A stretch of 64,000 bases of DNA from the NCBI GenBank assembly GCA_043817155.1, contig JBDRHE010000072.1, positions 1,345-65,344 of the forward strand, written 5' to 3'. Positions 22,068-40,829 of the stretch are shown piece by piece (the first letter of the stretch is position 1; every line of letters starts with the position of its first letter). The stretch comes from Candidatus Omnitrophota bacterium (GTDB lineage: Bacteria; Omnitrophota; Gorgyraeia; JABMRN01; RBG-13-46-9). Below the pieces are notes generated by a model. The model was given only the letters and a program-made list of their open reading frames with translations. It had not been told where the DNA came from and did not search any database. Position numbers and translations under genes: made by a program.

Positions 22068-22167
22068 AAGAGGTCAATTCGACTGTTCAAAGAAGAAATT
22101 CACGGTAGATGCATTTACAAAAATCTTTGATTTTCGTAAATGCAGGTCTCATTGAAGGAGGGACGAG

Positions 22168-23061: not shown

Positions 23062-23081
23062 TTACAATTTAGGAGAAGAGT

Positions 23082-23942: not shown

Positions 23943-23946
23943 TTTC

Positions 23947-24026: not shown

Positions 24027-24061
24027 TGTGGGAAGATGCCAAGGGACAAATAGAGGTCTCA

Positions 24062-24820: not shown

Positions 24821-26742
24821 TGGCGGAAAAGAAGAAGACCGGTATCGATAAATTGCGGGAGATCTGTTATTCGTGCGGTCTGGAAACGATATGGGACAGG
24901 TACGATGCGCAGGAGCCTCACTGTGGTTTTGGCCTGCTTGGGCTTTGCTGCAAAACATGCAATCTCGGACCATGCCGAATTGACCCGTTCGGAGAGGGGC
25001 CGCAGGCGGGTACATGCGGCGCCACAGCTGATACGATAAGCGCGCGGAATCTCGCGCGTCATGTCGCAGCGGGAAGTTCGTGCCACTCAGATCATGGAAG
25101 AGAGATAGCCCATACACTTCATCTCTATGGCCAGGGGAAGGCTCCGAGCTACGAGATACGAAGTGAAAAGAAACTCAAGGTAGTCGCCGGCGAATATGGG
25201 ATTACCATTGATGGTAAGACAAATGAGGAGATCGCGCGAGAACTAGGAGAGCGCATGCTTGAGGATTTTGGCAGCCAAGCGAAGGCCCCTACACTTCTTG
25301 CCAGAGCCCCAAAGAAACAGCAAAAGATATGGGATGAACGCAGGATAGTTCCGCATGGAATCGACAGACCGGTCGTTGAGACGATGGCGCGTACCAATAT
25401 AGGGGTAGATACCGACTATAAAAACATAATTTTAGGTTCGATGAAAGCGGCGCTCGCCGATGGTTGGGGAGGGTCGATGATAGCTACAGAAGCTAGTGAT
25501 ATTCTTTTTGGCGCCCCGCAGGCTATCAGGGCAAAGGTCAATCTCGGAGTTTTAAAAGAAGATCAGGTCAATATTATTATTCACGGGCACGTCCCACTTT
25601 TAAGTGATGTCATCGTTACAGCTTCGCGAGACCAGGAGATGCTGAAATTGGCAAAGGCAAAGGGCGCTTCCGGCATTACTGTCGCGGGGATCTGTTGTAC
25701 GGCAAACGAGATCTTAATGAGAAGGGGCGTTCCTGTAGCAGGGAGTTTCCTGCAGCAGGAACTGGCGATCTCGACCGGAGCGGTCGAAGCAATGGTTGTA
25801 GATTTACAGTGCGTTCTTCCGGGTCTGGCGAGGATTGGGGAGAAGTTCCATACAAATCTTATTTCTACTCATCCGAAGGCAAAGTTCCCGGGCATGGAAC
25901 ACATAGAGTTCTCCGAAGAGAAGGCGCTCGATATTGCCAGGGCCATTGTAACAAAAGCGATAGAAAATTATCCTAATCGGGACAAATCAAAGGTGAATAT
26001 CCCGAAAGGAACCATGGATCTCATCGCCGGGTTCACCCCTGAAAATATTTATCATTATCTCGGAGGAAAATATCGCTCGACATACCGGCCGCTTAACGAT
26101 GCGATTGCGAGCGGACGTATACGCGGTGTTGCCGGCGTAGTAGGGTGTGATAATCCGAAACAGAAGAGCGGGAAGAGCCACATGGAGATGGTAAAAGAGC
26201 TCCTTAAACACGATGTGCTGGTTGTCCAGACCGGGTGTTCTGCGCTGGAGTCTGCGCAGGCAGGACTTCTCGTTCCGGAAGCCGCGAAGAAGTACGCGGG
26301 CAAAGGTATACAGGAGGTCTGCGAAGCGGTAGGGATACCCCCGGTTTTGCATCTCGGCTCCTGTGTTGACAATTCCAGAATTCTTATAGCTTGTACAAAT
26401 ATTGTTCGTGAAGGCGGGATAGGGGACGGGATCGATGAGCTTCCGGTGGCAGGGGCAGCGCCCGAATGGATGAGCGAAAAAGCTATCGCTATCGGTTCCT
26501 ATTTTGTCGCTTCGGGAGTTCTTGTTGTGATCGGGTCCCCGCTACCGGTGACGGGTTCGAAGAACGTGGTCAGCTATCTCACCGAAGAGCTGGAGGATGT
26601 TGTAGGAGGAAAATGGGCTTTTGAGGAGGACCCGATAAGAGGGGCCCATATAATAATACGCCACCTTGATAAGAAGCGTACGGCATTAAAGCTTGCGCCT
26701 ATGATGTATCAGAAATCCGAAACTGTTTTGGTGAAAGAATAA
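24820..26742 (+). CDS. cooS: Anaerobic carbon monoxide dehydrogenase catalytic subunit.
   Basis: N-terminal D- and B-cluster cysteine motifs (CGFGLLGLCCKTCNLGPCR). 640 aa. GGAGGAGG ribosome-binding site. Confidence 0.9.
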   Translation: MAEKKKTGIDKLREICYSCGLETIWDRYDAQEPHCGFGLLGLCCKTCNLGPCRIDPFGEGPQAGTCGATADTISARNLARHVAAGSSCHSDHGREIAHTLHLYGQGKAPSYEIRSEKKLKVVAGEYGITIDGKTNEEIARELGERMLEDFGSQAKAPTLLARAPKKQQKIWDERRIVPHGIDRPVVETMARTNIGVDTDYKNIILGSMKAALADGWGGSMIATEASDILFGAPQAIRAKVNLGVLKEDQVNIIIHGHVPLLSDVIVTASRDQEMLKLAKAKGASGITVAGICCTANEILMRRGVPVAGSFLQQELAISTGAVEAMVVDLQCVLPGLARIGEKFHTNLISTHPKAKFPGMEHIEFSEEKALDIARAIVTKAIENYPNRDKSKVNIPKGTMDLIAGFTPENIYHYLGGKYRSTYRPLNDAIASGRIRGVAGVVGCDNPKQKSGKSHMEMVKELLKHDVLVVQTGCSALESAQAGLLVPEAAKKYAGKGIQEVCEAVGIPPVLHLGSCVDNSRILIACTNIVREGGIGDGIDELPVAGAAPEWMSEKAIAIGSYFVASGVLVVIGSPLPVTGSKNVVSYLTEELEDVVGGKWAFEEDPIRGAHIIIRHLDKKRTALKLAPMMYQKSETVLVKE

Positions 26743-27272
26743 TGGTAATGAAGAAGGGGATAATTATAGTAGATCCCAAAAGATGTGTCGCATGCAGGAC
26801 GTGCGAGCTGCAATGCGCGGTTGCGCATTCAAAATCGAAAGATCTGAATAAGGCAATTTACGAAGAGCCGCGCTCCAAATCGCGGGTCAAGGTCGAATCA
26901 TGCCAGGACCTTGTAGTTCCTTTGCAATGCCGGCACTGTGAGGATGCCCCGTGCGTAAAGATATGTCCGACAAAAGCGCTCGAGAAGTTTGAAGTTGAAG
27001 GCCCGGTATTGATAGATGACAAGAGATGCATTGGATGTAAGTGGTGCGTCGTGGTCTGTCCATTCGGTGTAATAAATATGGATAAGTCCGGGAAGGCCAT
27101 AATAAAATGCGACCTCTGTTTTGAACGACTTAAAAATGGGGAGAGACCTGTCTGCTGCGCGGCCTGTCCAACCGGCGCATTACAGTTTAAGACCATGGAA
27201 GAGGTGACCAGGGAGAAGAAGAGAGAGTATCTGGTCAAGTTTAATTCGTCCGCAGAATTACCCGGGCTTTAG
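26742..27272 (+). CDS. cooF: CODH-associated 4Fe-4S ferredoxin-type iron-sulfur protein CooF.
   Basis: Four CxxCxxCxxxCP-type motifs. Start overlaps the cooS stop (TAATG). Confidence 0.8.
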   Translation: MVMKKGIIIVDPKRCVACRTCELQCAVAHSKSKDLNKAIYEEPRSKSRVKVESCQDLVVPLQCRHCEDAPCVKICPTKALEKFEVEGPVLIDDKRCIGCKWCVVVCPFGVINMDKSGKAIIKCDLCFERLKNGERPVCCAACPTGALQFKTMEEVTREKKREYLVKFNSSAELPGL

Positions 27273-27282
27273 CCCGTGGATA

Positions 27283-27393
27283 GAATTTCGCAAAGCGAAA
27301 TTCATTGCTTGGCGAGATGCTAAGCATCTCACCAAAGGTGATATGTGTTTTTGATGGAGGGAGCCCACCGGACTTTAGCCCGGGGGGCTCCAC
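27283..27393. repeat. Family A three-hairpin element, full copy A3.
   Basis: GAATTTCGCAAAGCGAAATTC / TTGGCGAGATGCTAAGCATCTCACCAA / GGTGATATGTGTTTTTGATGG / GGAGCCCACCGGACTTTAGCCCGGGGGGCTCCAC. Confidence 0.85.
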
Positions 27394-27419
27394 GAAAGAG
27401 AAGCAAGGGGGAGCGGTCT

Positions 27420-27890
27420 TTGAAGAAGGCAATAGACGTAAAGAAGATAGACGGCATAGTTAAGCGGCATAAATGCCGCATGAGTGGACTTATCGGGATG
27501 TTACAGGACATTCAGGGTAGTCATGGTTTTCTGCCTAAAGAGGCGCTCACCCGTGTGGCTGAGGCATTGAATGCCCCGCTAAGTCAGGTATACAGTCTGG
27601 CCACTTTCTATAAGGCTTTTAGTCTAAAGGCGCGCGGTAAGTATATGGTCTCTCTTTGCATGGGTACCGCATGCCACGTAAGAGGAACGGAAAGAATACT
27701 GGATGAATTGGAGAGGAAGCTCAAGATAAAAGCCGGCAACACAAGCAAGGACTCACGCTTCAGCCTGGAGACGGTCAACTGTTTAGGCGCTTGCGCGCTT
27801 GGGCCATTAATGGTTATAAACGGCGAATATTACGCTAAGATGAATGCCAAGAAGGTGGGTTCGATTCTTAAAAAATATGAAAAATCCTAA
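27420..27890 (+). CDS. NuoE/HoxE-like 2Fe-2S thioredoxin-fold subunit of an NAD(P)H-dependent flavoprotein module.
   Basis: CMGTACHVRG...CLGACALGP cysteine motif. TTG start with an AGGGGGAG ribosome-binding site. The track ORF begins inside repeat A3. Confidence 0.75.
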   Translation: MKKAIDVKKIDGIVKRHKCRMSGLIGMLQDIQGSHGFLPKEALTRVAEALNAPLSQVYSLATFYKAFSLKARGKYMVSLCMGTACHVRGTERILDELERKLKIKAGNTSKDSRFSLETVNCLGACALGPLMVINGEYYAKMNAKKVGSILKKYEKS

Positions 27891-29754
27891 AACGCCAAAG
27901 ATAAAAAAGCTGAAAGATACAAAAGGGCTTGAGGAGCTAAGAAGATCTATATTGAAAAAGCGCGAGGCCGGCAAGCCCTGTGTAACCATATGTAAAGGAA
28001 CCGGGTGTTCTGCCTCCGGGGCATCAGAGCTTGAAGCTGATCTTAAAGAAGAGATCAAAAAGAAGAAATTGGACCGTGAAGTGGACGTTAGAACGACCGG
28101 ATGTCACGGATTCTGTGAAAAGGGGCCGCTTCTCGTTGTGCACCCCAGCAAGATATTCTATCAGAGCGTTAAAAGTAAAGATGTGCCCGAGATAGTTGAA
28201 GAGACACTGGTAAAGAAAAGAATAGTAGATAGATTGCTTTACAGCGATCCCGCAACCGGTAAAAAAATCACGCATGAAGATGAGGTCCCTTTCTATAAGA
28301 AGCAGACCAGACTCATCTTTGGCAATAACGGAAAGATAGATCCTACTAATATCGAAGACTATATAGCGCTCGGCGGGTATAGTTCTTTATCTAAAGTACT
28401 ATCAAAGATGAAGCCCGAAGATGTCATAGATGAGGTGAATCGTTCAGGTCTCCGCGGCAGAGGCGGCGGAGGCTTCCCGACAGGCAGGAAGTGGGAATCC
28501 TGTAGTAAGTCAAAGGGCGATACGAAATATGTAATATGCAATGCGGATGAAGGGGACCCGGGCGCTTTTCAGGATCGGAGCCTTCTTGAAGGTAACCCTC
28601 ATGCTGTGGTAGAGGGGATGATAATAGGCGCTTATGCCATTGGCGCTAAAGAAGGATATATTTATGTACGAAACGAGTATCCGCTGGCAGTAAAGCACAT
28701 CGAGATAGCCATAGAGAGCGCCGAAGACTTGGGATTATTGGGCAAAGATATCCTGGGATCGAAATTCTCTTTTACAATTAACGTTGTAAAAGGCGGGGGA
28801 GCATTTGTTTGCGGTGAATCCTCGGCACTAACGGCGTCTATAGAAGGGCGCATTGGTGAGCCGCGCTTTAAACATGTTCACGCTACCGAAAAAGGGCTTT
28901 GGGATAAACCCACGACTCTTAATAATGTTAAGACCTGGGCAACGGTTCCATTTGTTATCGATAAAGGCGCTCGCTTTTATTCAAAGATAGGTACCGAAAG
29001 AAGCAAGGGAACGATGATCTTTTCGTTGGTTGGCAAGATCAATAATACCGGTCTTATCGAGGTTCCTATGGGGATAACTTTGCGTGAACTGATATACGAT
29101 ATAGGCGGCGGTATTCCCGGCAAGAAGAGATTTAAGGCTGTGCAGACAGGAGGCCCCTCAGGGGGGTGTGTCCCGGAAAGCCATCTCGATATTCCTGTAG
29201 ATTACGAAAAACTTACAGAAGCCGGCTCCATGATGGGCTCGGGCGCAATGATAGTAATGGATGAAGATACCTGCATGGTAAATGTGGCCAAATATTTTCT
29301 CTCCTTTACCAAAGATGAATCATGCGGGAAGTGTACCCCATGCCGGGAAGGCGTGAAACATATGCTCGATATATTAAATAGAATTACAAAGGGCGAGGGA
29401 GAAGCCGGGGACATAGAATTACTCGAAGAGCTGGGTAGCAGAATATCGGAGACATCACTTTGCGCTTTAGGACAGACAGCCTCAAATCCGGTACGCACGA
29501 CAATACGATATTTCAGGGATGAGTACAAGGCGCATATAGAAGATAAGAAGTGCCCGGCGAAAGTTTGCCACGATCTCATAACTTACTCTATCGATGAAAG
29601 TAAGTGCACAGGATGCACATTGTGCGCTATAGAGTGTCCCGAGAAGGTAATTTCAGGTGAAAAGAAGAAGCCTCACAAGATAGACGAGAAGAAGTGCATC
29701 AGGTGTGGTGTCTGTTTTGATGTCTGCAAGTTCGGCGCGGTAAAGGTGAAGTAG
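27877..29754 (+). CDS. NuoF/HoxF/HydB-like flavoprotein subunit (FMN and NADH binding, 4Fe-4S, extra N-terminal 2Fe-2S domain and C-terminal ferredoxin domain).
   Basis: GLRGRGGGGFPTGRKWE NADH/FMN motif, ESCGKCTPCREG 4Fe-4S motif, and two C-terminal CxxCxxCxxxCP motifs. Confidence 0.85.
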   Translation: MKNPKTPKIKKLKDTKGLEELRRSILKKREAGKPCVTICKGTGCSASGASELEADLKEEIKKKKLDREVDVRTTGCHGFCEKGPLLVVHPSKIFYQSVKSKDVPEIVEETLVKKRIVDRLLYSDPATGKKITHEDEVPFYKKQTRLIFGNNGKIDPTNIEDYIALGGYSSLSKVLSKMKPEDVIDEVNRSGLRGRGGGGFPTGRKWESCSKSKGDTKYVICNADEGDPGAFQDRSLLEGNPHAVVEGMIIGAYAIGAKEGYIYVRNEYPLAVKHIEIAIESAEDLGLLGKDILGSKFSFTINVVKGGGAFVCGESSALTASIEGRIGEPRFKHVHATEKGLWDKPTTLNNVKTWATVPFVIDKGARFYSKIGTERSKGTMIFSLVGKINNTGLIEVPMGITLRELIYDIGGGIPGKKRFKAVQTGGPSGGCVPESHLDIPVDYEKLTEAGSMMGSGAMIVMDEDTCMVNVAKYFLSFTKDESCGKCTPCREGVKHMLDILNRITKGEGEAGDIELLEELGSRISETSLCALGQTASNPVRTTIRYFRDEYKAHIEDKKCPAKVCHDLITYSIDESKCTGCTLCAIECPEKVISGEKKKPHKIDEKKCIRCGVCFDVCKFGAVKVK

Positions 29755-29785
29755 TGTAATGGGTGAGCTTTCATGGTTTTTTCTC

Positions 29786-29885
29786 TGTCATTCCCGGACC
29801 GCTGCTGCGGTCTAAACTCCAGCGGGAATCCATGGATGCACTCTCTACGAGTCCGCTCTGGATCCCCGCTTTCGCGGGGATGACA
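29786..29885. repeat. Family B element, copy B5 (long-left-arm subtype).
   Basis: TGTCATTCCCGGACCGCTGCTGCGGTCTAAACTCCAGCGGGAATCCATGG...CTGGATCCCCGCTTTCGCGGGGATGACA. Same subtype as copy B8. Confidence 0.85.
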
Positions 29886-29931
29886 AGCGGGGACAAACTC
29901 TTGTTTATTAACCAATTATGGAATAGGGACG

Positions 29932-30666
29932 ATGGAAAAGGTAACTATAGATAGTCGAAAGATAGATGTAGAAGCGGGGACGACTATTCTCGAAGCGGCC
30001 AACGAACTCGGGATAGAGATCCCTACGCTATGTTATCATGAGGCGCTTGGACCTTACGGCTCCTGTCGGGTATGCATGGTGGAGATCGTTACTGAGAGAG
30101 GCTCGAAGTTGGTAACTGCCTGTACGTATCCTGTATGGGATGGACTTGTGGTTAAGACCGATTCAGAAAAAGTTATTGAGGCACGCAAATTCATAGTGGA
30201 ACTGATGTTGGCGCGCTGCCCGAACGTAGACGCGATCAAGAGGCTGGCCGAAAGATTGGGAGTAAAGAATAGGGGTCTGGCGACCGCAGATGAGAATTGC
30301 ATTCTTTGCGGTTTATGCATAAGGGCCTGTAAAGATATGATAGGAACCTCGGCGATAAGCTTTGCAAATCGAGGCATGGAAAGAAAGGTACAGACACCTT
30401 TTGAGGAAGCATCTGTTGTCTGTATAGGATGCGGCGCCTGCGCGTTTGTCTGCCCTACAGGCGCCATCGATATTCAAGATATAGAGAAGATCCGCAAGGT
30501 ACATGGCAATACGGATCTAACGCTTGCAGCTTGCAAGGGTTGTGGTAAGCAATTTGCTACCGTAAAAGAGCTAGACTATATAAAAGAGAAGATAGATCTG
30601 CCGCAGGAGATATTCGAACTTTGTCATAAGTGTAAACGCAATAAATTAAGGAGAGATATGAAATAA
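29932..30666 (+). CDS. NuoG/HydA N-terminal-like ferredoxin (2Fe-2S plus two 4Fe-4S) without a catalytic domain.
   Basis: CYHEALGPYGSCRVC (2Fe-2S), CILCGLCIRAC and CIGCGACAFVCP motifs. Only 244 aa. Confidence 0.7.
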   Translation: MEKVTIDSRKIDVEAGTTILEAANELGIEIPTLCYHEALGPYGSCRVCMVEIVTERGSKLVTACTYPVWDGLVVKTDSEKVIEARKFIVELMLARCPNVDAIKRLAERLGVKNRGLATADENCILCGLCIRACKDMIGTSAISFANRGMERKVQTPFEEASVVCIGCGACAFVCPTGAIDIQDIEKIRKVHGNTDLTLAACKGCGKQFATVKELDYIKEKIDLPQEIFELCHKCKRNKLRRDMK

Positions 30667-30819
30667 GATCCCTCGGCTATACCTGGGGATTAATTACGAT
30701 CATTCAAACCTGCCTGCCTATCAGCAAGTCGGGCAGGCAGGGAAGAGAAACAGGGAAGATGAACTTATGAAAATTAGAAATTTTCATAAGTTCAGATCTC
30801 ATTAAAGGGAGAAAAACTC

Positions 30820-33800
30820 ATGTCGAGAATAGTTGCTCAATCAGCAATAAGAGGCGCGAAGAAGCTTGTACAGGAAGCCGAGGGGCTACTGGGCAAGGCG
30901 ATCGAAGAGAAGGGCAAGGAACAGATACTGGAATTCCCGGAGACGGCTTTCTTCATGCCGATGGCCAATGCCCTACTGGGGGCCGAGGTCAAGACTCTAA
31001 ATGAAGCATTGCCCATAATAAAAGAGGCCAAATCGCTTTTGCACGAAGATCCGACTAACGATCTATGGCTTCCTTATCTTGGTAGCGCGCTGGATTCCGG
31101 AATCGCGGCTTTGCTGGCAGAGGAGATTATTCTGGCTATACGCTACATTTATGGCAAAGAGCCTCAGGCCGATTGTAACGGCTTTTTTACGGATACGATA
31201 CTGCGCACTTTAGGAATACAACTCGTAGATGGCAGGATGCCTGGCTTTGCCGCGATACTTGGGGCTGCTCCGGACAATAAGACCGCGGTAGATATCGTAA
31301 GGGACTTTCAGAAGAGAAACATAATGACTTTTGTAGGCTCAAGCTCAAATGGTAAGAGCATCATAGACCAGCTTAAAGAAGAGAAGATCGAGATGGGATG
31401 GGATACTTATATAGTACCTTATGGCAGGGATACCGTATCTGCGCTCTATCCGTTGAACTGGGCCATAAGAGGAGCGCTTACTTTTGGCGGGATCAAGGCC
31501 GGGAATGCAAAGAAATGCTTAATGTATTGCAAAGAGAGGGTCTTTGCTTTCGGATTAACTCTCGGAGAGGTCGATGATGTTAAGTACGCTACCGGTGCGG
31601 GAGCAATAAACATGGGATTTCCTATAATAGCCGATACCGAGATACCGGAGATCAGGCCAACAGGTATATGCACGTATGAACATCTTGTAAAAGAACTTGA
31701 TCATAAGAAGATAGTTCAAAGCTGCATTGAGGTAAGGGGTGTTAAGGTGAAGCTTTCCGAGATACCGATACCCGTTGCATATAGCGCTGCTTTTGAAGGG
31801 GAGAGAGTAAGGCGCGAACAGATGTATGCGCAATTCGGAGGGAAGTTCTCACACGCGTTCGAATACGTTCGCTCTAAATCTCTTGATGAGGTAGAAGATG
31901 ATAAGATAGAGGTCGTCGGGCCGGAGATAGATGAAATGACCGAAGGAGGGGCCTATCCTCTCGGTATAGTGGTGGATGTCGCAGGAAGAAAGATGCAGCA
32001 CGATTTTGAACCTATACTGGAAAGGCAGGTGCATACCTTCTTAAATGAAGCTATGGGCATATTCCATATGGGTCAGAGAAGTATGTGCTGGATGAGGATC
32101 TCTAAAGACGCGCAGAAGAAAGGCTTTAAGCTGAGGCACCTGGGCGTGATCCTCCATGCGCAATTTCACGATATCTACTCTAAGATCGTTGACAAAGTCC
32201 AGATCACCATCTACACGAAGAAAGAGGATGTCGATAGGATAATGCCTGAAGCTGAAAAGGTATATGAAGAGCGTGATGAGCGTATGGCCGGTATGACGGA
32301 TGAGAGCATCGACACGTTTTACAGCTGCACGCTTTGTCAGAGTTTTGCGCCGAATCACCTTTGCATAATAAAGCCCGAGAGACTCGGTCTCTGCGGGGCT
32401 TATAGCTGGCTCGATGCGAAGGCATGTTACGAATTGAATCCGTCAGGACCGAATCAGCCCATCAAAAAAGGCGAATGTCTGGACCCGGTCCGGGGTGAAT
32501 GGAAGAATATAAACGATTTTATATATAAGAGTTCTAATAAGACGCTTGAGAAGTTCCACGGATATTCGATCATGAGCTACCCGGAAACAAGTTGTTGCAC
32601 CGGTGATACAGAGGTGTTGATAGGTGGAAAGATCGTAAAGATCGGTGATTTTATAGACCTTCATAGGGGTGGGGAGGAGTATGCCAGATTTAAGGCAGCA
32701 ACCTTGAGCGGTGGCAAAACCGTAGAAGAGGATATCGTTGCTATGCAAAGATTTACGGCTCCGGAAGAGTTGATAAGGATTGAAACAAAATCGGGCGCAG
32801 AACTTGTATTGACAAAGGATCATAAGGTCTTTGTTGATAGGCAGGAAGGGGAAGCTCAGGTTAGGGCAGATGAGATAAGAGATGAGGATAGAATCGTATC
32901 GCTTAAGAGACTGAATCTAAAAGAGGAGTTGCCTGAGATATCCGAAATATTCGGGGGGCGTTTAAACGAGGATATTTCAAATGAGATTATAAACAAGGAT
33001 CTCTTTTATATATTGGGACTCCTTGCTTCCGACGGTTCGATATGCAGAGTGGGAAGAAGGGAATACAAGATCAATTTTATCAACACCGAACCGGCGTTGA
33101 TTAATAAGTATAAGAGGCTCGCTAAAAAATTATTTCCAAAAAAGAACTGCAAAGCCCGCATTAAGAACAAAAATCTCTCCACAATAAAAGGACGTATTAT
33201 AAATTCTCAGAAGGTATGCTACGATTGTTATTCGAACAATAGCGTTTTGGGAATGATTGCAGAGTATTTTGGTATAAAAGTTGGCATTAAAGGGGTATGG
33301 AATTTGGCACAATTGATTAATCTTCCAAAGGACTTCATCGGTTCTTTTTTGGCCGGCATCTTCGACGGCGATGGAAGCATAAGATTGAGAAGATACTATT
33401 CCAAGTGGGATATCCCCGAAGCCTATCTCTGTATCGGGGATAAGAAAGCAGCATCTCACCTTCAGATGCTATTGCGAAGATTTGGCATAACAAGTTTTGT
33501 AAAGAAGTCCAATTCGGTTTACAAGGTGACTTTATACGGAACGAACCTAATTAAATTCCTGGATATTGCACCCATTGTTCATCCAAAGAAGAAGAAAATA
33601 TCGGAAAGAGTCAAGAAATTATCAAAAGCGAATAAAGGTCCTGACAGGGCACAGGGAGAGGTTCTGCCTTTTGGAGTAGGCAAAATTTTGGCAGAAATCC
33701 CTGAAACGAAAACAATACTTAGCCCTAGCACACTTTTCTATTATAGAACATTCAGATCTAGACCCGTGCTTTCCAATGTAAATAAGGTGATTGACGGATT

Positions 33801-34374
33801 GCCAAACGATAAGGCGCAAATCCTAAAAGATGCTATTGACACCGATTACTTTTTGGACATTGTTTCAAAGGTTAGAACAATAAAGAATAACGGGAGATTT
33901 GATTATGTGTACAATTTAACCCTTTCCGATACCCATAGTTATTATGCGAATGGAATGCATATTGCAAATTGCGGATGTTTTGAATGTATAATCGCGATTC
34001 TGCCTGAAGCGAACGGATTCATGGTGGTGAACAGGGAGTTTCCCGGGCTTACGCCTGCGGGGATGAAATTCTCTACGCTCGCAGGGTCCGTTGGCGGCGG
34101 AAATCAGACTCCCGGATTCATGGGTGTAGGAAGGCTTTATATAATCAGTAAAAAGTTCATATCCGCTGATGGCGGATTAAAGAGGCTGGTCTGGATGCCG
34201 AAGGAACTTAAAAGTGCTCTCGGTGACAGGCTAAAGAAGAGGTGCGCGGATCTCGGCATGCCGGATCTATTTGATAAGATAGCCGATGAGACTAACGCAA
34301 CTGAATCGGAAGCATTGGTAAAATATTTAACCGAGAAGGGCCATCCGGCCATTACGATGGAACCGTTAATGTGA
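30820..34374 (+). CDS. acsB: Acetyl-CoA synthase catalytic subunit (AcsB/CdhC) interrupted by an in-frame intein.
   Basis: 1184 aa, against about 730 aa for AcsB. The extein ends ...SYPETSC and resumes CGCFECIIAILPE (the A-cluster Cys-Gly-Cys Ni site). The intervening 458 aa has intein blocks. Confidence 0.9.
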   Translation: MSRIVAQSAIRGAKKLVQEAEGLLGKAIEEKGKEQILEFPETAFFMPMANALLGAEVKTLNEALPIIKEAKSLLHEDPTNDLWLPYLGSALDSGIAALLAEEIILAIRYIYGKEPQADCNGFFTDTILRTLGIQLVDGRMPGFAAILGAAPDNKTAVDIVRDFQKRNIMTFVGSSSNGKSIIDQLKEEKIEMGWDTYIVPYGRDTVSALYPLNWAIRGALTFGGIKAGNAKKCLMYCKERVFAFGLTLGEVDDVKYATGAGAINMGFPIIADTEIPEIRPTGICTYEHLVKELDHKKIVQSCIEVRGVKVKLSEIPIPVAYSAAFEGERVRREQMYAQFGGKFSHAFEYVRSKSLDEVEDDKIEVVGPEIDEMTEGGAYPLGIVVDVAGRKMQHDFEPILERQVHTFLNEAMGIFHMGQRSMCWMRISKDAQKKGFKLRHLGVILHAQFHDIYSKIVDKVQITIYTKKEDVDRIMPEAEKVYEERDERMAGMTDESIDTFYSCTLCQSFAPNHLCIIKPERLGLCGAYSWLDAKACYELNPSGPNQPIKKGECLDPVRGEWKNINDFIYKSSNKTLEKFHGYSIMSYPETSCCTGDTEVLIGGKIVKIGDFIDLHRGGEEYARFKAATLSGGKTVEEDIVAMQRFTAPEELIRIETKSGAELVLTKDHKVFVDRQEGEAQVRADEIRDEDRIVSLKRLNLKEELPEISEIFGGRLNEDISNEIINKDLFYILGLLASDGSICRVGRREYKINFINTEPALINKYKRLAKKLFPKKNCKARIKNKNLSTIKGRIINSQKVCYDCYSNNSVLGMIAEYFGIKVGIKGVWNLAQLINLPKDFIGSFLAGIFDGDGSIRLRRYYSKWDIPEAYLCIGDKKAASHLQMLLRRFGITSFVKKSNSVYKVTLYGTNLIKFLDIAPIVHPKKKKISERVKKLSKANKGPDRAQGEVLPFGVGKILAEIPETKTILSPSTLFYYRTFRSRPVLSNVNKVIDGLPNDKAQILKDAIDTDYFLDIVSKVRTIKNNGRFDYVYNLTLSDTHSYYANGMHIANCGCFECIIAILPEANGFMVVNREFPGLTPAGMKFSTLAGSVGGGNQTPGFMGVGRLYIISKKFISADGGLKRLVWMPKELKSALGDRLKKRCADLGMPDLFDKIADETNATESEALVKYLTEKGHPAITMEPLM
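32596..33969 (+). mobile_element. Intein (458 aa) with a LAGLIDADG homing endonuclease domain, inserted in acsB.
   Basis: Block A CTGDTEVLIGG. Block B LTKDHKVFV. Two LAGLIDADG motifs (LGLLASDGSI, LAGIFDGDGSI). Block G YYANGMHIAN, followed by the +1 Cys of the CGCFEC motif. Confidence 0.85.
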
Positions 34375-34380
34375 AATGAA

Positions 34381-34424
34381 GCCATAAGTTACGACAACCC
34401 AGTGGTTGTCGTAACTTATATGGC
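34381..34424. repeat. Family F hairpin, copy F2, directly after the acsB stop.
   Basis: GCCATAAGTTACGACAACC-CAGT-GGTTGTCGTAACTTATATGGC. Confidence 0.8.
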
Positions 34425-34478
34425 TGAATTTCATCCCGAGGCACTGAAAGTGCCGAGGGATCTCAAACTTAAAACACT

Positions 34479-34613
34479 TGTCATTCCCGCGCAAGCGGGA
34501 ATCCATGGATGTACTCTCGACGAGTCCGCTCTGGATCCCCGCTTACGCGGGGATGACAAAAGATGAGATTGCTTCGGCGCGCTAAGAAGAATAAGGCGCC
34601 TCGCAAAGACGAT
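34479..34613. repeat. Family B copy B6 (34479-34558) abutting a family C right-end fragment C3 (34563-34613).
   Basis: B6: TGTCATTCCCGCGCAAGCGGGAATCCATGG...CTGGATCCCCGCTTACGCGGGGATGACA. C3: GAGATTGCTTCGGCGCGC...GGCGCCTCGCAAAGACGATG. Confidence 0.8.
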
Positions 34614-34641
34614 GTAACTTAAAAAAAAGGAGAGTCAAGAA

Positions 34642-35979
34642 ATGGCCTTATCCGGACTTGCTATATACAAATTATTACCGAAGACGAATTGTAAAAAATG
34701 TGGATTTCCGACGTGTCTGGCGTTCGCGATGCAGCTTGCGGCAAAGAAGATATCTCTGGATAAATGTCCCGATGTTACGGAAGAGACCAAGAGGACTCTC
34801 GATGGCGCTTCCCAGCCACCCATAAAGCTGATCACGATCGGTACGGGCGATGATAAACTCCAGATCGGCAATGAGACCGTCCTATTTAGACACGAGGAGA
34901 AATTCTACCATCCTGCGGGTATCGGGTTTATTGTAGACGACACCGAAAGCTCTGACGAGATCAAGCAGGCGCTCGGCGAGATAAGCAAGCTCGATTTTGA
35001 AAGGGTTGGTCAGAGAATAAAGGGCGATCTGGTCTGCGTATCGTGCAAAAGTGACAATGCGACCAAATTCCGGGATGCGGTAAAGACTGTACTTGAGAAT
35101 TCGAAACTTCCCATAGCGTTAATGAGTGATGATGCCGTGATCGTGGGCAAAGCCCTTGAGATATCAAAAGAGAGAGTTCCGCTAATATGCGGGGCAACGG
35201 CTGCAAACTTCAAAGAGATGGCAAAGCTTTCTAAAGATTTTAAAGCGCCGGTTGTAGCCAGCGCGCCAAGCCTCGAGGAACTGGAGACGCTTGTAAAGAA
35301 CCTGAATACCGAGGGCGTGCAGGATATAGTACTGGATACAGGGAAGAAGAATCTCTCGGAAAAGTTGTGGGATCTTGTGCAGATAAGGAGGCTTGCTCTA
35401 AAGAAGTCATTTAGGCCGTTTGGCTATCCTGTCATTACATTTACAGAGAGCGAGGATCCCTACCAGGAAGCGGCCGAAGCGTCGACCTATGTTTCCAAGT
35501 ACGCCGGTATCGTTGTGATTAAGAATAGACACCCCTGGGAGGTGCTCCCGATCTTAACCGTAAGACAGAATATATACACAGATCCCCAGAAACCTCTCCA
35601 GGTTGACTCAAAGATCTATGAGGTGGGAAAGGTATCCGATAGTTCGCCTGTTATCGTCACAACAAATTTCTCTCTCACATATTATACGGTAGAGGCGGAA
35701 GTGGAATCGAGCAAGGTCCCTTCCTACATAATACCGTGTGACGCCGAAGGTATGTCGGTCCTTACAGCATGGGCCGCTGAAAAGTTTACGGCAGAGAGCA
35801 TAGCCCAGACGCTTAGTAAATTCGGTATGAAGGACAAGGTGAATCACAAAAGTGTGGTCATTCCCGGATATGTCGCGGTTTTGAGCGCTAAATTAGAAGA
35901 GGAATCCGGTTGGAAGGTAACTGTCGGCCCGAAGGAGGCCTCGGGCCTGCCAACATTTTTACGAAATCTTAATAAGTGA
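34642..35979 (+). CDS. acsC: Corrinoid iron-sulfur protein large subunit (AcsC/CdhE).
   Basis: N-terminal CKKCGFPTCLAFA 4Fe-4S motif. 445 aa. Strong AAGGAG ribosome-binding site. Confidence 0.9.
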   Translation: MALSGLAIYKLLPKTNCKKCGFPTCLAFAMQLAAKKISLDKCPDVTEETKRTLDGASQPPIKLITIGTGDDKLQIGNETVLFRHEEKFYHPAGIGFIVDDTESSDEIKQALGEISKLDFERVGQRIKGDLVCVSCKSDNATKFRDAVKTVLENSKLPIALMSDDAVIVGKALEISKERVPLICGATAANFKEMAKLSKDFKAPVVASAPSLEELETLVKNLNTEGVQDIVLDTGKKNLSEKLWDLVQIRRLALKKSFRPFGYPVITFTESEDPYQEAAEASTYVSKYAGIVVIKNRHPWEVLPILTVRQNIYTDPQKPLQVDSKIYEVGKVSDSSPVIVTTNFSLTYYTVEAEVESSKVPSYIIPCDAEGMSVLTAWAAEKFTAESIAQTLSKFGMKDKVNHKSVVIPGYVAVLSAKLEEESGWKVTVGPKEASGLPTFLRNLNK

Positions 35980-35988
35980 AATGAGGTC

Positions 35989-36128
35989 AATTCCAGTCCC
36001 GGCCTGGATTATAGAGGTTTGCCTAGACAGGCCGGGACTGGAATGCAGATCGCGTACGGATAGAATCAGGACATTCAGGTCCCGGGCTTTCTAGGACAAC
36101 CTCTTTTATCAAGCCCGGGACCTGAATG
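35989..36128. repeat. Two tandem family D hairpins (D3a 35989-36045, D3b 36072-36128).
   Basis: CAATTCCAGTCCCGGCCTG-GATTATAGAGGTTTGCCTAGA-CAGGCCGGGACTGGAATG and CATTCAGGTCCCGGGCTT-TCTAGGACAACCTCTTTTATC-AAGCCCGGGACCTGAATG. The second loop is the reverse complement of the first loop type. Confidence 0.85.
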
Positions 36129-36141
36129 ATGAGGAAGCAGG

Positions 36142-38085
36142 ATGGAGAAGTTCAAAGTTACATTTAAACCGGGCAACAAGATTGCCGAAGCAAAGAAGGG
36201 CGCGGATCTTCTTTCGGCCGCGGTCTCTTGCGGTGTATTCATAAATTCAAGTTGCGGCGGTGAAGGTGTTTGCGGAAGGTGCAAAGTCGTGATCAAGAAG
36301 GGCGACTTTAAGACCGAGCCTACCGGGAGGGTGTTACCGGAAGAGAGAAAGAAAGGCGTTGTCCTTGCGTGTCTTACGACGGTCGAAGGAGACCTCGAAG
36401 TATTTGTTCCGAAGGAATCCAGGCTCGATCTTGGTAAGATCAAGGATGAGGACGCAAGGCTTCATAGACTAAAGGGCGTATATTCCGAAGCGGTCGAGAT
36501 CGATAAAGGAAGGCCGATCATAAACGAAGACCTGTTTACCCATAGCCCGATATCGACAAAGATCTATACGGAGCTCCCGCAACCGACACTGGATGACAGC
36601 GTAAGTGATTATGAAAGATTGATAAGGGAGATAAAGGAGAAGCACAACGTACCTGTCGTACAGACGGGCCTAAGAAACATAAGAAAGCTTGGCAGCCTAC
36701 TTCGTCATAGCGATTGGAAGGTTACAGCGACCCTCGGCAAGAGGAACGAAACTACCGAGGTTGTGATAATCGAGCCGGGGGATACTTCAAAAGAGAATTA
36801 TGGCATCGCTTTTGATATAGGCACGACTACGGTTTCGGGGCAGCTTGTGAACCTGAATACCAAAGAGGTTCTTGGCACAAAGGCTACCTATAACAAACAG
36901 ATAGTCTTTGGCGACGATGTGATCACGCGGATAGTATTTGCAACCGAAGAGAGCGGCCTTGAACGTTTGCACCACGCTGTTATCGATAACATGAATTCTA
37001 TTATTCATGAATTGATCACTGAGCATAACATACCGTTAAACTGGGTAACGGGCGTTGTATGCGCCGGAAATACTACAATGATGCATCTCCTGCTTCGCGT
37101 GGACCCCACTCATATAAGGAGAGAACCCTATGTATCAACTGCGAATTTTGTACCGGTCGTAAGATCCGCGGAGGTCGGTATTAAAGTTCACCCCAGGGGG
37201 CTGCTTGCTTGTATACCGGGGGTTAGTACCTATGTCGGAGGCGATATAGTTGCCGGTGTAGTGGCCTGTGGCATTAATAGGAGTGAACAACTTACACTGC
37301 TTATAGATATCGGTACAAACGGTGAGATGGCGCTTGGCAATAAAGAATGGATGGCATGCTGTTCAGCGAGCGCAGGACCGGCTTTTGAAGGCACCGGGGT
37401 TTCGTGTGGGATGAGGGCAATGGATGGCGCGATAGAGAAAGTCGAGATTGGTTCTGATCTTGAATCAAGGACCCGGACCATTAAGAACGCAAAGCCAATG
37501 GGGATTTGCGGTTCAGGATATATATCGCTCATCTCCGAGATGTTTAAAAGAAAGATCATAAAGCGGGATGGCAAATTGAACGACGATCTTAAAACAGAGC
37601 GCATCAGGGTGTCGAATGATGAGCTTGAATACGTGGTCGTCTTTAAGAAGGATGCGTGCTGTGATTATGACATCGTGATCAAGGAGTCCGATATTGAAAA
37701 TATTAAAAGGTCAAAAGGCGCGATCTATTCAGCGGCATACATACTGGTTAAAAAGTTCGATCTGACTTTTGACCAGATCGATAAGGTATATATCGCAGGT
37801 GGATTTGGGACGTTTCTCGATATAGATTGCGCTGTATCCATAGGACTTTTACCGGATATCGAGAGAGGTAAATTCCAATTTGTAGGAAACAGCTCTCTAA
37901 TAGGATCGAGAGAGATCCTGCTGTCTTATGATACAATGAAGAAGGCCGAAGAGATCGCCAGGAAGATGACATATATCGAGCTTAGCAAGGACCCCGGCTA
38001 CATGGATGAATATGTTTCGAGCCTCTTCTTCCCGCATACGGACCTCGAACGGTTTCCGAGCGTGAAGAAGGGAAGATCTGCTTGA
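36142..38085 (+). CDS. Reductive activator of the corrinoid iron-sulfur protein (RACo/AcsV). 2Fe-2S ferredoxin domain plus ASKHA ATPase.
   Basis: N-terminal CGGEGVCGRCKV plant-type ferredoxin motif and an FDIGTTTV ASKHA phosphate-1 motif. 647 aa. Confidence 0.8.
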   Translation: MEKFKVTFKPGNKIAEAKKGADLLSAAVSCGVFINSSCGGEGVCGRCKVVIKKGDFKTEPTGRVLPEERKKGVVLACLTTVEGDLEVFVPKESRLDLGKIKDEDARLHRLKGVYSEAVEIDKGRPIINEDLFTHSPISTKIYTELPQPTLDDSVSDYERLIREIKEKHNVPVVQTGLRNIRKLGSLLRHSDWKVTATLGKRNETTEVVIIEPGDTSKENYGIAFDIGTTTVSGQLVNLNTKEVLGTKATYNKQIVFGDDVITRIVFATEESGLERLHHAVIDNMNSIIHELITEHNIPLNWVTGVVCAGNTTMMHLLLRVDPTHIRREPYVSTANFVPVVRSAEVGIKVHPRGLLACIPGVSTYVGGDIVAGVVACGINRSEQLTLLIDIGTNGEMALGNKEWMACCSASAGPAFEGTGVSCGMRAMDGAIEKVEIGSDLESRTRTIKNAKPMGICGSGYISLISEMFKRKIIKRDGKLNDDLKTERIRVSNDELEYVVVFKKDACCDYDIVIKESDIENIKRSKGAIYSAAYILVKKFDLTFDQIDKVYIAGGFGTFLDIDCAVSIGLLPDIERGKFQFVGNSSLIGSREILLSYDTMKKAEEIARKMTYIELSKDPGYMDEYVSSLFFPHTDLERFPSVKKGRSA

Positions 38086-38124
38086 TCAATTAGAAGGGAG
38101 TCTGTTACCGAACACAAACATCGT

Positions 38125-38214
38125 GTCATTCCCGTGTTTTCCCACATGTCATCCCCGCGTAAGCGGGGATCCAGACGAGGCCCACCATGGATTCCCGCTT
38201 CCGCGGGAATGACA
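38125..38214. repeat. Family B element, copy B7, with a partial duplicated left end.
   Basis: GTGTCATTCCCGTGTTTTCCCACA + TGTCATCCCCGCGTAAGCGGGGATCCAG...ATGGATTCCCGCTTCCGCGGGAATGACA. Confidence 0.85.
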
Positions 38215-38278
38215 GAGTTAGATGTGGATGACAAAGGGATAAATATGGTTTTGGCAACAAATTCGAAAGAAATTAATT

Positions 38279-39034
38279 ATGGGTCAGATAATAGCTATAG
38301 CCGGTAAGGGTGGCACCGGAAAGACTACGCTGGCGAGCTTAATCGTAAGAACGCTAAAGGAGCAGAATTCAGGGTCCATTCTTGCTATAGACGCAGATCC
38401 CAATAACACCCTTGGGCAGACGTTGGGCGTAAAGGATATATCTACAATAGTGGAGATCGTTGATAATATTTCAAAGAATCTGTCAGAGATCCCGGCCGGT
38501 ATGACAAAGGATAGATTTCTGGATATGAAGATCCAGGAATCCATAAATGAGGAGCCGGGTTTCGATCTATTAAGTATGGGTAGGCCCGAGGGTCCGGGAT
38601 GTTACTGTTTTATCAATAACCTGCTGCGCGATCTCATAGAGAGGCTTATGAAGAACTACTCGTATATTATCGTGGATAACGAAGCCGGTATGGAGCATCT
38701 TTCCCGCAGGCTTGTTCGCAAGATCGACAGACTTTTTATGACAAGCGACAGTTCCATAATAGGCATAAGATCCGCTGCCAGGATATCTAAGCTTATCGAT
38801 GATCTGAACATAACGGTAAAGGACCGGGGACTCGTACTAAATAAGTTAAAAGTCGGACGGGATACGCTAAATAAAGAGATAGAGAGATCGGGGCTTGAAA
38901 TGATAACAACCCTGCCGTTTGACGAAGAGATTGAGGTCGCTGCCATAGGAGAGAGATCTATATTCGAGATAGCGAGCGAGAACAGGCTTTTAAATTTGGT
39001 AAAGGATCATTTCAAACTTGCGGTAACAAAATAA
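38279..39034 (+). CDS. acsF: ACS/CODH accessory Ni-insertion ATPase of the CooC/AcsF family (second paralog).
   Basis: IAIAGKGGTGKTT Walker A motif and CYC motif. MinD/ParA fold. Confidence 0.8.
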   Translation: MGQIIAIAGKGGTGKTTLASLIVRTLKEQNSGSILAIDADPNNTLGQTLGVKDISTIVEIVDNISKNLSEIPAGMTKDRFLDMKIQESINEEPGFDLLSMGRPEGPGCYCFINNLLRDLIERLMKNYSYIIVDNEAGMEHLSRRLVRKIDRLFMTSDSSIIGIRSAARISKLIDDLNITVKDRGLVLNKLKVGRDTLNKEIERSGLEMITTLPFDEEIEVAAIGERSIFEIASENRLLNLVKDHFKLAVTK

Positions 39035-39041
39035 GGAGCGG

Positions 39042-40016
39042 ATGATGGAGTTATTAAAAGAGGCGCACGCAAACAAGGTCAATACAGTTACTATAGGCGC
39101 TACCGGGACGGAAGGCGGAACAAGGGATTCAAAAGTCATAGCCGGAGGCGAAAGCACGCTACCGTATCTCTTTAAAGAAGGCCAGATGCCCAACGAGCCG
39201 GTCATAGCCATGGAGATCCTGGACATAGAGCCGGAGGATTGGCCGGAGACCCTTAAGAGACCTTTTGGCGACGTTTTAAAGGACCCGGTTAAATGGGCTG
39301 TAAAATGCGTTGAAGAATATAAGGTAAGCATTTTATGCGTCAAATTACAGGGAACACACCCGGATTTCGGCAGCAGGTCCGCGGATGATGCAGGAAAGCT
39401 CATCAAGGATATATTGCAGGCGGTAAAGGTGCCGCTTATAATATTGGGCTCGGGTGATAATGAAAAAGACAACGTAGTTCTGGCAAAAGCAAGCCAGGTT
39501 CTGAAAGGAGAAAGGGCTCTTTTGGGCGATGCTACCGAGAAGAATTATAAGACGCTTACGGCAAGCTGCCTGGCTGACGGGCACAACATAATTGCGGAGT
39601 CCCCGATAGATATTAACATAGCCAAACAGGCCAATATCCTTATAAGCGAGATGGGTTTTCCACTCGAGAGAATCGTTATAAATCCAACTATAGGCGCGCT
39701 TGGATACGGCATGGAATACGCATACTCCATAATGGAGCGCGCAAGGAATGCTGCTTTAATAGGCGATAAGATGCTAGCCATGCCTTTTGTATGCTTTATA
39801 GGAAATGAAGCGTGGCGGGCAAAGGAAGCAAAGTCTACGGCCAGAGAGCACCCCGATTGGGGTGACGAATATTCAAGAGGCGTTCTTTGGGAGATAGAGA
39901 CCGCTTGCTGCATGCTTCAGGCGGGGGGAGACATACTTATAATGCGCCATCCGAAAGCGGTCGAGGAGACGAGGAAGTATATTGCTAAGCTGATGGGTCC
40001 GAAAGATAAAGTTTAG
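39042..40016 (+). CDS. acsD: Corrinoid iron-sulfur protein small subunit (AcsD/CdhD).
   Basis: TIM-barrel CFeSP delta-type subunit. 324 aa. AAGGAG ribosome-binding site. Confidence 0.85.
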   Translation: MMELLKEAHANKVNTVTIGATGTEGGTRDSKVIAGGESTLPYLFKEGQMPNEPVIAMEILDIEPEDWPETLKRPFGDVLKDPVKWAVKCVEEYKVSILCVKLQGTHPDFGSRSADDAGKLIKDILQAVKVPLIILGSGDNEKDNVVLAKASQVLKGERALLGDATEKNYKTLTASCLADGHNIIAESPIDINIAKQANILISEMGFPLERIVINPTIGALGYGMEYAYSIMERARNAALIGDKMLAMPFVCFIGNEAWRAKEAKSTAREHPDWGDEYSRGVLWEIETACCMLQAGGDILIMRHPKAVEETRKYIAKLMGPKDKV

Positions 40017-40040
40017 TGGATAGCGCATAAAGGAGGCTAA

Positions 40041-40829
40041 ATGCTAGTAATAGGCGAGCTAATAAATGGGATGTACAAGGATATCGGTAGAGCCATAAAA
40101 GAGCGCGATAAAGCCGGTATTCAAAAGTCGGCCATCGAGCAGGTGGCAGCCGGAGCCGGGATGCTCGACGTAAATACAGGACCTTATGAGAAGAACCCGA
40201 AAGACGCGATGAAGTGGCTCGTCGAAACGATCCAGGAGGTAACCGATGTGCCGCTCGCGCTCGATAGCACTAAACCTGAAGTGATAGAAGAGGGTCTTAA
40301 GATCGTAAAGAAGAAGGCGATGATCAATTCGACGAACTCCGATGACAGTAAACTGGATGTGCTTGTACCGATGGCAAAGAAGTACAATGCATCTCTCATC
40401 GGTCTTACCATGGGAAAGAGTGGTATCCCGCGTGACAGAAATGAGAGGATGGAGCACGCGGTAAAGATGGTAACGAAGTGCCAGGAAGTGGGGCTTCCGA
40501 TGAGCGACTTTTATATAGATCCTATAGTGCTTCCTGTGAACGTAGCCCAGGCGCAGGCAAAAGAGGTGCTGGAATCGATCAAAGAATTTAAGTTTCTATG
40601 TGACCCGGCCCCAAATACCGTAGTAGGCTTAAGTAATGCTTCTCAGAGCACAAAGGAGAGGCCTATTATAAACAGGACGTATCTTGTAATGGCAATAGCA
40701 AGTGGATTATCCGCAGCTATATTGGACCCGCTTGACAAAGACCTCATGGACGCCGCAATAACGGCGGAACTCATTTTGAACAAGAATATATATTGTGACT
40801 CTTTCTTGAACGCATATAAAACAAAATAG
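40041..40829 (+). CDS. acsE: Methyltetrahydrofolate:corrinoid iron-sulfur protein methyltransferase (AcsE). Pterin-binding domain.
   Basis: DHPS-like pterin-binding fold with ALDSTKPEV and INST motifs. AGGAGG ribosome-binding site. Confidence 0.85.
   Translation: MLVIGELINGMYKDIGRAIKERDKAGIQKSAIEQVAAGAGMLDVNTGPYEKNPKDAMKWLVETIQEVTDVPLALDSTKPEVIEEGLKIVKKKAMINSTNSDDSKLDVLVPMAKKYNASLIGLTMGKSGIPRDRNERMEHAVKMVTKCQEVGLPMSDFYIDPIVLPVNVAQAQAKEVLESIKEFKFLCDPAPNTVVGLSNASQSTKERPIINRTYLVMAIASGLSAAILDPLDKDLMDAAITAELILNKNIYCDSFLNAYKTK

Follow-up and report, generated by a model that had tools for sequence, protein, structure and literature searches.

Solved inteins of archaea and yeast, namely TliVMA/PhoVMA, PI-PkoII, PI-PfuI and PI-SceI, consist of a HINT domain split by a double-motif LAGLIDADG endonuclease. 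They combine a Cys at the first intein position (Cys1), a TxxH motif in block B, a terminal Asn and a Cys at host position +1. Their hosts are an ATPase, a polymerase and a reductase. In bacteria, 61.5% of inteins are found in replication and repair proteins and 21.7% in nucleotide metabolism, according to a survey of prokaryotic inteins that does not mention "acetyl-CoA" or "CO dehydrogenase" in its main text (PMC4760082). Here, we describe an intein in a bacterial carbon-fixation metalloenzyme, acetyl-CoA synthase (ACS, or AcsB). The gene, acsB, lies in a stretch of 64,000 nucleotides (hereafter the window) of contig JBDRHE010000072.1 from a Candidatus Omnitrophota bacterium. The AcsB intein has the same bipartite build as the solved inteins and shares with them the four residues or motifs listed above. 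In contrast, it is only 13-19% identical to them, lacks the penultimate His and has an Asn in place of the block F Asp. We propose, with a probability of about 0.88, that it is a class-1 intein with a double-motif LAGLIDADG homing endonuclease, located directly before the Cys-Gly-Cys motif of AcsB and predicted from its sequence to splice and to home.

The Cys-Gly-Cys motif is part of the nickel site of the enzyme. In Moorella thermoacetica ACS, the proximal Ni is bound by Cys595, Cys597 and the cubane-bridging Cys509, and the distal Ni is bound by Cys595, Cys597 and the backbone amides of Cys595-Gly596-Cys597. Cys595 is a ligand to both Ni atoms (PMC10299331). As for class-1 splicing, its steps are established, and an Asp in block F, typical of most inteins, assists steps 1 and 2 (PMC10663303). 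A described parallel is the MoaA intein of Pyrococcus abyssi. Like the AcsB intein, it interrupts an oxygen-sensitive enzyme in an anaerobic organism, and its catalytic cysteines lie beside host cysteines; it provides a precedent for splicing that depends on reducing conditions (PMC10663303).

Results

Insertion site in AcsB

The acsB open reading frame (ORF) occupies positions 30820..34374 (all features given here are on the + strand of the window). It encodes a precursor of 1184 aa plus stop, a bacterial acetyl-CoA synthase interrupted by one intein. The reading frame is unbroken across 3.5 kb, and the translation is 100% identical to GenBank protein P0007 from a Candidatus Omnitrophota metagenome-assembled genome (MAG). 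On the 1184-aa protein, Pfam places CODH_A_N at residues 22-110 and CdhC at residues 317-471, and ACS_CODH_B_C is split in two stretches. The exteins together hold the three-domain AcsB architecture.

We compared the precursor with the solved ACS structures of Carboxydothermus hydrogenoformans (1RU3/7ZKJ) and M. thermoacetica (1OAO/1MJG). These chains of 728-734 aa cover only residues 10-592 and 1049-1184 of the query, and the two blocks abut in the chains. The E-value, about 1e-200, excludes a chance alignment. Intein-free AcsB proteins resemble the window exteins from end to end, with the same three domains and the same A-cluster ligands. However, they are made directly, whereas the window AcsB first needs 459 residues removed at the equivalent of Cys595.

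Alignment and Pfam delimit an intein of 459 aa at 32593..33969 (precursor residues 592-1050, CCTGDTEV...GMHIAN), inserted between Ser591 and the first Cys of the Cys-Gly-Cys motif. According to the alignment with solved ACS, the N-extein (30820..32592) has 591 aa and ends with ...SYPETS. Its [4Fe-4S] ligands C503, C506, C515 and C525 correspond to Moorella C506, C509, C518 and C528. The C-extein (33970..34374, 134 aa plus stop) comprises the remainder of the A-cluster domain, as seen by Pfam and by alignment. It opens with the Cys-Gly-Cys motif (33970..33978), equivalent to Moorella Cys595-Gly596-Cys597. The +1 Cys (33970-33972) aligns with Moorella Cys595. In the predicted spliced protein, C592-G-C594 aligns with Moorella 595-597 and the full set of A-cluster ligands is kept.

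The intein differs from its host gene in composition, with 39.8% GC versus 47.7% in the exteins, and the GC profile falls to 0.35-0.41 over 32900-33950. The nearest intein-free orthologues also come from Omnitrophota and are 82-85% identical to the exteins. The 64-kb window holds a single acsB copy and no second intein.

Boundaries of the intein

The N-terminal junction contains two consecutive cysteines, and the choice between them shifts the intein start by one codon. A preliminary description of the window had located the intein at 32596-33969 (458 aa), with its N-terminal Cys at CTGDTEV and a spliced product of 726 aa reading ...SC-CGC. By inspection, either Cys could indeed be residue 1, because CTGDTEV also opens with a Cys. 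C. hydrogenoformans ACS has one Cys at this place (...YPMTS-C594-GCFE), and HMMER positions C594 on both C592 and C1051 of the query. A single Cys precedes Gly-Cys in all solved ACS chains, and likewise in about 108 of 120 close homologues. Most related inteins also have one Cys at their N-terminal junction, as in QTS/CVVSDTQ, PMTA/CLTADTE and PMTS/CVVGDTE (slashes mark junctions). Moreover, block A has its spacing of C-x-x-x-[DEN]-[TSA] only when the first Cys is counted as residue 1.

With the first Cys as start, the predicted spliced AcsB has 725 aa and a junction ...YPETS/CGCFEC, within the stretch ...SIMSYPETS-CGCFECIIAILPE... A length of exactly 725 aa is found in about 108 of the 120 best-scoring clusters of extein homologues. 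The single-Cys ACS, the single-Cys relatives and the length of the homologues lead us to start the intein at the first Cys of CC. The alternative, in which the intein runs for 458 aa from the second Cys and leaves ETSC-CGCFEC after splicing, is contradicted by the solved structures and the 725-aa homologues; we consider its likelihood negligible. The second Cys of CC thereby becomes intein residue 2, a trait limited to an Omnitrophota-like clade.

About 90% of the closest homologues have no insert, and 10 of the 120 closest AcsB clusters carry the intein. An empty site is seen in the intein-free allele L114, which reads CCTGAAACAAGT/TGCGGTTGTTTTGAGTGT; the reconstructed site of the window matches it at 47 of 60 nt.

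Much of the preliminary description is confirmed by these comparisons. The 1184-aa ORF, the intein with a LAGLIDADG endonuclease at the Cys-Gly-Cys motif, and the +1 Cys as first Cys of CGCFEC and Ni ligand all stand. Support for the intein comes from the Pfam profiles, from matches to intein structures and from the many homologues without insert, which also show that the segment is not a native AcsB domain common to all. The alignment with the Moorella and Carboxydothermus enzymes gave the clean insertion that had been expected, at 459 rather than 458 aa. The intein end is unchanged and the start moves one codon upstream, so that Cys1 is the preceding Cys of CCTGDTEV. The C-terminal His-Asn that had been reported has to be corrected, since the intein ends in H-I-A-N, with a penultimate Ala; the junction between Asn and the +1 Cys is nevertheless present.

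Splicing blocks and endonuclease motifs

The Pfam profile Intein_splicing matches residues 606-1046 with 48.3-51.9 bits, for a cut-off of 35.8. LAGLIDADG_3 matches two stretches inside the insert, with E-values from 3.8e-14 to 3e-15. Both profiles are found above the Pfam thresholds, and block B and the two LAGLIDADG motifs of the preliminary description are present.

The family alignment places splicing block A at 32593..32631, with the catalytic Cys1 at 32593-32595, and block B at 32812..32823, with T74-K-D-H77 as its TxxH motif. Blocks F and G span 33898..33969 (FDYVYNLTLSDTHSYYANGMHIAN) and contain N441, Ala458 and Asn459 (33967-33969). Between them, Pfam and alignment locate LAGLIDADG motif 1 at 33001..33039 (LFYILGLLASDGS, LFYILGLLASD147GS), with D147 (33031-33033) as putative catalytic residue. 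Motif 2 is at 33337..33378 (IGSFLAGIFDGDGS, FLAGIFDGD260GS), with D260 (33370-33372) as its putative catalytic counterpart.

These residues are strongly conserved. Cys1, Thr74, His77, Asn441 and Asn459 are each at least 95% conserved among 41 distinct alleles. The junction Asn459/Cys, formed by the intein-terminal Asn and the +1 Cys of CGCFEC, is found in all 46 complete copies. The acidic residue closing each LAGLIDADG motif is kept in 39 of 39 full-length copies, with a Glu at the D147 position once.

Homologous inteins in other genomes

A first search with the intein alone as query returned six AcsB fragments with an insert 35-51% identical to that of the window. Scanning a genome collection with the single intein sequence gave no confirmed relative; an alignment-based scan succeeded. 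It identified 19 GTDB species-representative genomes with an intein at the AcsB Cys-Gly-Cys site (CGC site). The hosts are Omnitrophota, Planctomycetia, Chloroflexota/Anaerolineae, Actinomycetota, Aerophobetes, Poribacteria and 'Ca. Subteraquimicrobium'. The CGC-site intein therefore spans at least six bacterial phyla. In JGI metagenomes, at least 32 further AcsB loci were found among the matches listed (best 80). In a protein library of 1.84 billion representatives, the intein profile had 2719 matches at E <=1e-3, including 124 at E <=1e-30.

Altogether, 113 loci were examined and 51 of them encode an AcsB broken at the same residue. They contain 46 complete CGC-site inteins (41 distinct) of 157-571 aa, all located between [TS][SA] and CGCFEC. 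Intein-bearing acsB genes had been anticipated in related MAGs, and dozens of alleles are indeed present in public MAGs and metagenomes. The window gene is less singular than the preliminary description implied: about 50 AcsB genes carry the same insertion.

Two alleles are mini-inteins at the CGC site, one of 169 aa (P0024; L018, 6001-6507) and one of 157 aa (P0085; L019, 1130-1600). Both have lost the entire endonuclease and keep intact splicing blocks, and they share 63-65% identity with the splicing domain of the window intein. At the other end of the size range, alleles of 523-571 aa (L004, P0002, P0004, P0005) are extended by a segment of about 70 aa, which follows the N-terminal splicing region and precedes LAGLIDADG motif 1 (columns about 125-200 of alignment A1). 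DNA binding is one possibility for this segment. A helix-turn-helix DNA-binding module was suspected, but Pfam gave no match in two alleles and we do not retain this assignment.

One locus, L052, was taken for an intein-free allele. It is actually an intein-bearing AcsB cut by a contig end, for which a long tblastn alignment had been over-extended. In 'Ca. Subteraquimicrobium carltonvillense' UBA2594 (L016, about 7500-7600), stop codons or a frame change are seen near the C-terminal junction of the intein, corresponding either to a decaying allele or to an assembly error.

In GenBank, five proteins of the family (P0007, P0016, P0021, P0108 and P0001) are named 'LAGLIDADG family homing endonuclease', or in one case 'hypothetical protein', though they are complete or partial AcsB. 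Where annotation relies on names, acsB could thus be missed in MAGs of Omnitrophota, Chloroflexota, Actinomycetota and other groups.

Selection and mobility

Ratios of nonsynonymous to synonymous substitution rates (dN/dS) were calculated by the Nei-Gojobori method for pairs with unsaturated dS. Values of 0.04-0.28 for the splicing part and of 0.07-0.20 for the endonuclease part indicate, at the level of sequence, that both are under purifying selection. In one pair of alleles (L037/L045), the dS of the intein is 0.14-0.22, versus 0.69 for the flanking exteins. Recent homing between diverged alleles would produce such a contrast. The patchy presence of the intein among close AcsB relatives is also as expected for a mobile element. 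Across hosts, the flanks of the insertion read CC.ATGAC.../TGYGGNTGYTTYGARTGYAT.

Predicted fold

An AlphaFold2 model of the intein was calculated from a 5-sequence alignment and used for fold-level matches only, not for active-site geometry. Its mean predicted local distance difference test score (pLDDT) is 63.5, with the endonuclease core (residues about 130-345) mostly at 70-92. A Foldseek search of the PDB gave TliVMA as top match (5.8e-13), followed by PI-PkoII, PI-PfuI and PI-SceI. I-DmoI and I-Tsp061I match the nuclease core, with target-normalised template-modelling (TM) scores of 0.69-0.72. A profile search of PDB sequences retrieved the PI-PkoII, MJ0781 (KlbA), VMA, CDC21 and RadA inteins, with a best E-value of 9e-9. 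The modelled core has the pseudo-dimeric alpha-beta-beta-alpha-beta-beta-alpha arrangement of LAGLIDADG proteins. Given the weak model of the splicing domain, assignment of the predicted HINT fold comes mainly from the profile matches. The AcsB intein thus belongs to the known fold family of inteins, at some distance from the solved members.

Related inteins at other metal sites

Some AcsB proteins carry a further intein at another position, which we call site A. This second intein shares 26-31% identity with the one at the CGC site. It has 476-550 aa and is clear in six loci (L034, about 4260-5686; L010; L013; L045; L046; L064). L063 probably holds a seventh, its break being seen in the extein alignment only. 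The site-A junction reads ...YSCxL/C...VVKN/CQSFAPNH and is located directly before the equivalent of Moorella Cys509, the residue that bridges to the cubane and also binds the proximal Ni (PMC10299331). AcsB precursors with inteins at both sites reach 1670-1855 aa. In the acsB of the window, site A is intact and without intein.

Beyond AcsB, related inteins are found in HdrA (junction FPTxDCSI/C...N/CIEGP) and in a PorB-like thiamine-pyrophosphate enzyme (FIYV/C...N/CYDNE), both 26-28% identical to the AcsB intein. They also occur in the large (RICGI/C...N/C) and small (DCGS/C...N/CNGC) subunits of group-4 [NiFe]-hydrogenase. The profile search also lists Cbf5/TruB and archaeal MCM among the next-nearest intein hosts. 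Profile E-values of the sister inteins versus the AcsB intein are 1e-59 to 1e-84. The non-AcsB relatives comprise P0133, P0139, P0135, P0145 and P0142 and loci L065, L067, L068, L071, L074, L075, L077 and L109.

Where junctions could be read, the sister inteins resemble the AcsB intein by ...VYN/D... (Asn or Asp at the third place), by an end in ...N/C, by a penultimate residue that is usually not His and by a LAGLIDADG core. They differ in position: most of them lie ahead of the second Cys in a C-x-x-C metal motif, and the window intein ahead of the first Cys of C-G-C. At AcsB site A, in HdrA and in both hydrogenase subunits, the +1 Cys is this second Cys of C-x-x-C, which places a host Cys at position -3.

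Genomic context

The acsB gene belongs to a co-directional Wood-Ljungdahl cluster (19659..40829, from gene annotation). The first part of the cluster comprises fhs, an FTCD_C-like gene, metF, folD, a cooC-like gene, cooS and genes for a ferredoxin and NuoF-like and HoxU-like proteins. From acsB on, it continues with acsC, acsV, a cooC/acsF-like gene, acsD and a gene for an acsE-like pterin-binding protein. The host gene is thus part of an intact pathway. No Rfam match was found in the window.

Between cooS and acsB, region 27844-30666 encodes two proteins. One is a NuoF-like flavoprotein to which 2Fe-2S and 4Fe-4S modules are fused, and the other is an Fe-S protein similar to HoxU/NuoG-N. The pair may provide carbon monoxide dehydrogenase/ACS with an electron module of its own, linked to NAD(P)H or ferredoxin. 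At the same position, the intein-free relative L114 has a ferredoxin and a pyridine-nucleotide-disulfide oxidoreductase instead. Two CooC/AcsF-type (CbiA/MinD-like) ATPases are encoded in the cluster, one before cooS (23999-24820) and one between acsV and acsD (38279-39034). They presumably insert nickel into the C-cluster and the A-cluster, respectively, and the one for the A-cluster could act only once AcsB has been spliced. Immediately beyond the acs cluster, a single ORF (41373-42806) combines an orotidine-monophosphate-decarboxylase/HUMPS-family (hexulose-phosphate-synthase-like) domain with an RraA-like aldolase domain.

Discussion

The position of the intein suggests an order of events in AcsB maturation. 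Translation would give the 1184-aa precursor. With 459 residues between its [4Fe-4S] cysteines and its Cys-Gly-Cys loop, this form is unlikely to assemble the A-cluster. An N-S shift would then form a thioester between Cys1 and Ser591. The +1 Cys would attack this thioester (trans-thioesterification), and cyclisation of Asn459 would release the intein. A final S-N shift would restore a normal Ser-Cys peptide bond, yielding 725-aa AcsB with ...YPETS-CGCFEC. Cys592 of the product would have served as splicing nucleophile before becoming the thiolate that bridges the proximal and distal Ni. Since the nucleophile is also the later Ni-bridging Cys, splicing should precede assembly of the A-cluster, and mature AcsB should require protein splicing. 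The freed intein is predicted to act as a site-specific endonuclease cutting intein-free acsB at the P-x-T-S/C-G-C-F-E-C site. Repair of the cut allele would copy the intein in. Such homing would explain the patchy distribution across several phyla.

Several observations speak against this scheme. The Asp expected at position 4 of block F is not present; at least 95% of the AcsB CGC-site alleles have Asn441 there (VYNLT), and the site-A inteins also show an Asn (VYNFSV). The penultimate His is missing in the window intein, which has Ala458; its relatives have Lys, Ala or Gln, and His is found only in L009. With Ala458 and Asn441 both non-canonical, splicing could be slow, conditional or mechanistically variant. 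The termini of the splicing domain have a pLDDT <50 in the AlphaFold2 model. The 459-aa intein of the window, like the alleles of 447-467 aa, does not have the segment of about 70 aa described above, which could impair DNA recognition. The identities of intein and extein co-vary broadly, and therefore vertical descent with loss, instead of frequent transfer across phyla, may account for much of the spread. Finally, a second, intein-free acsB may be present elsewhere in the genome, outside the 64-kb window.

As to the non-canonical residues, the departures are conserved throughout the family and not scattered, from which we infer variant chemistry or variant helper residues rather than decay. 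The block F Asn marks a variant, and it is compatible with membership in class 1. A minority of active inteins have no penultimate His and still splice.

The same residues bear on whether the intein might be a splicing-dead remnant, making acsB a pseudogene or its product a permanently interrupted, inactive protein. The missing penultimate His, the Asp to Asn change in block F and the stop codons or frame change in L016 would fit such a fate. Against it, the frame is open over the whole 3.5 kb, the surrounding pathway genes are intact, and the exteins stay close to intein-free orthologues with every A-cluster ligand in place. In addition, the unusual residues are common to about 40 alleles in which the nucleophiles are retained and dN/dS is well below 1, as expected for family traits, and inteins without penultimate His are known to splice. 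A dead intein is thus very unlikely. Still less credible is an insert that is a functional AcsB domain of one lineage, or the product of a chimeric assembly. Nothing beyond the length of the insertion speaks for it. The insert matches intein and LAGLIDADG profiles above the Pfam thresholds, and its structural neighbours are inteins and homing endonucleases. Most close homologues and every solved ACS structure lack it, and dozens of independent assemblies show the same junctions around inserts of 157-571 aa. We give this explanation virtually no weight.

A functional intein could, on the other hand, have been co-opted as a switch, with oxidation or premature Ni/Zn binding holding back splicing and ACS activity. 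A disulfide among Cys1, Cys2, Cys+1 and Cys+3, or Ni/Zn on these thiols, would block the reaction, and the oxygen-labile A-cluster would be assembled only under reducing conditions, before nickel delivery. ACS is an oxygen-sensitive enzyme, and four cysteines (C1, C2, +1, +3) meet at the splice junction. The intein is retained in at least six phyla under purifying selection. The sister inteins in HdrA, the hydrogenase subunits and AcsB site A sit as C-x-x/C, with a Cys at -3 to Cys1 as in the redox trap of MoaA. In P. abyssi, splicing of MoaA, itself an oxygen-labile enzyme, is known to be redox-trapped, and several inteins are inhibited by metal ions on active-site residues (PMC10663303). However, the window site has no Cys at -3 (E-T-S/C), its host family and site differ from those of MoaA, and Cys2 is limited to one clade. 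The Cys-rich junction follows simply from insertion in a metal site. Moreover, the intein is missing from about 90% of close relatives, and the mini-inteins and patchy distribution suit a purely selfish element. We therefore regard a switch as rather improbable, and favour an intein that is predicted to splice and home in the standard manner.

Related inteins exist at the two AcsB sites, in HdrA and in hydrogenase subunits. They raise the speculative possibility that the AcsB intein represents a branch within a LAGLIDADG intein lineage specialised on metal-ligand cysteines of anaerobic energy enzymes, with splicing as a metallocluster checkpoint. At each of these sites, the Cys that would act as splicing nucleophile would later bind the metal. 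We regard this view as rather improbable, and more doubtful than the splicing and homing proposed here.

A full-text literature search found no paper on AcsB inteins, a provisional result with subscription-only papers and intein databases outside the search; within the literature covered, the guess in the preliminary description that they form no described class held. The same search found no paper on HdrA, hydrogenase or PorB-like inteins. Provisionally, host enzyme and site thus appear undescribed, whereas the intein itself is of the standard bipartite kind and implies no new mechanism.

The AcsB intein family and its HdrA and hydrogenase relatives widen the known range of intein hosts towards anaerobic energy metabolism. 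The natural mini-inteins of 157-169 aa sit at a Cys-rich junction and may interest protein engineers. A single Cys that would be both splicing nucleophile and Ni-bridging ligand offers a clean test case for splicing that gates the maturation of a metallocentre or answers to redox state or metals. If the specialisation on metal-ligand cysteines is true, splicing would be an obligatory step before metallocluster assembly, possibly redox- or nickel-sensitive. Uncultured bacteria would then control their Wood-Ljungdahl pathway after translation, at the level of splicing.

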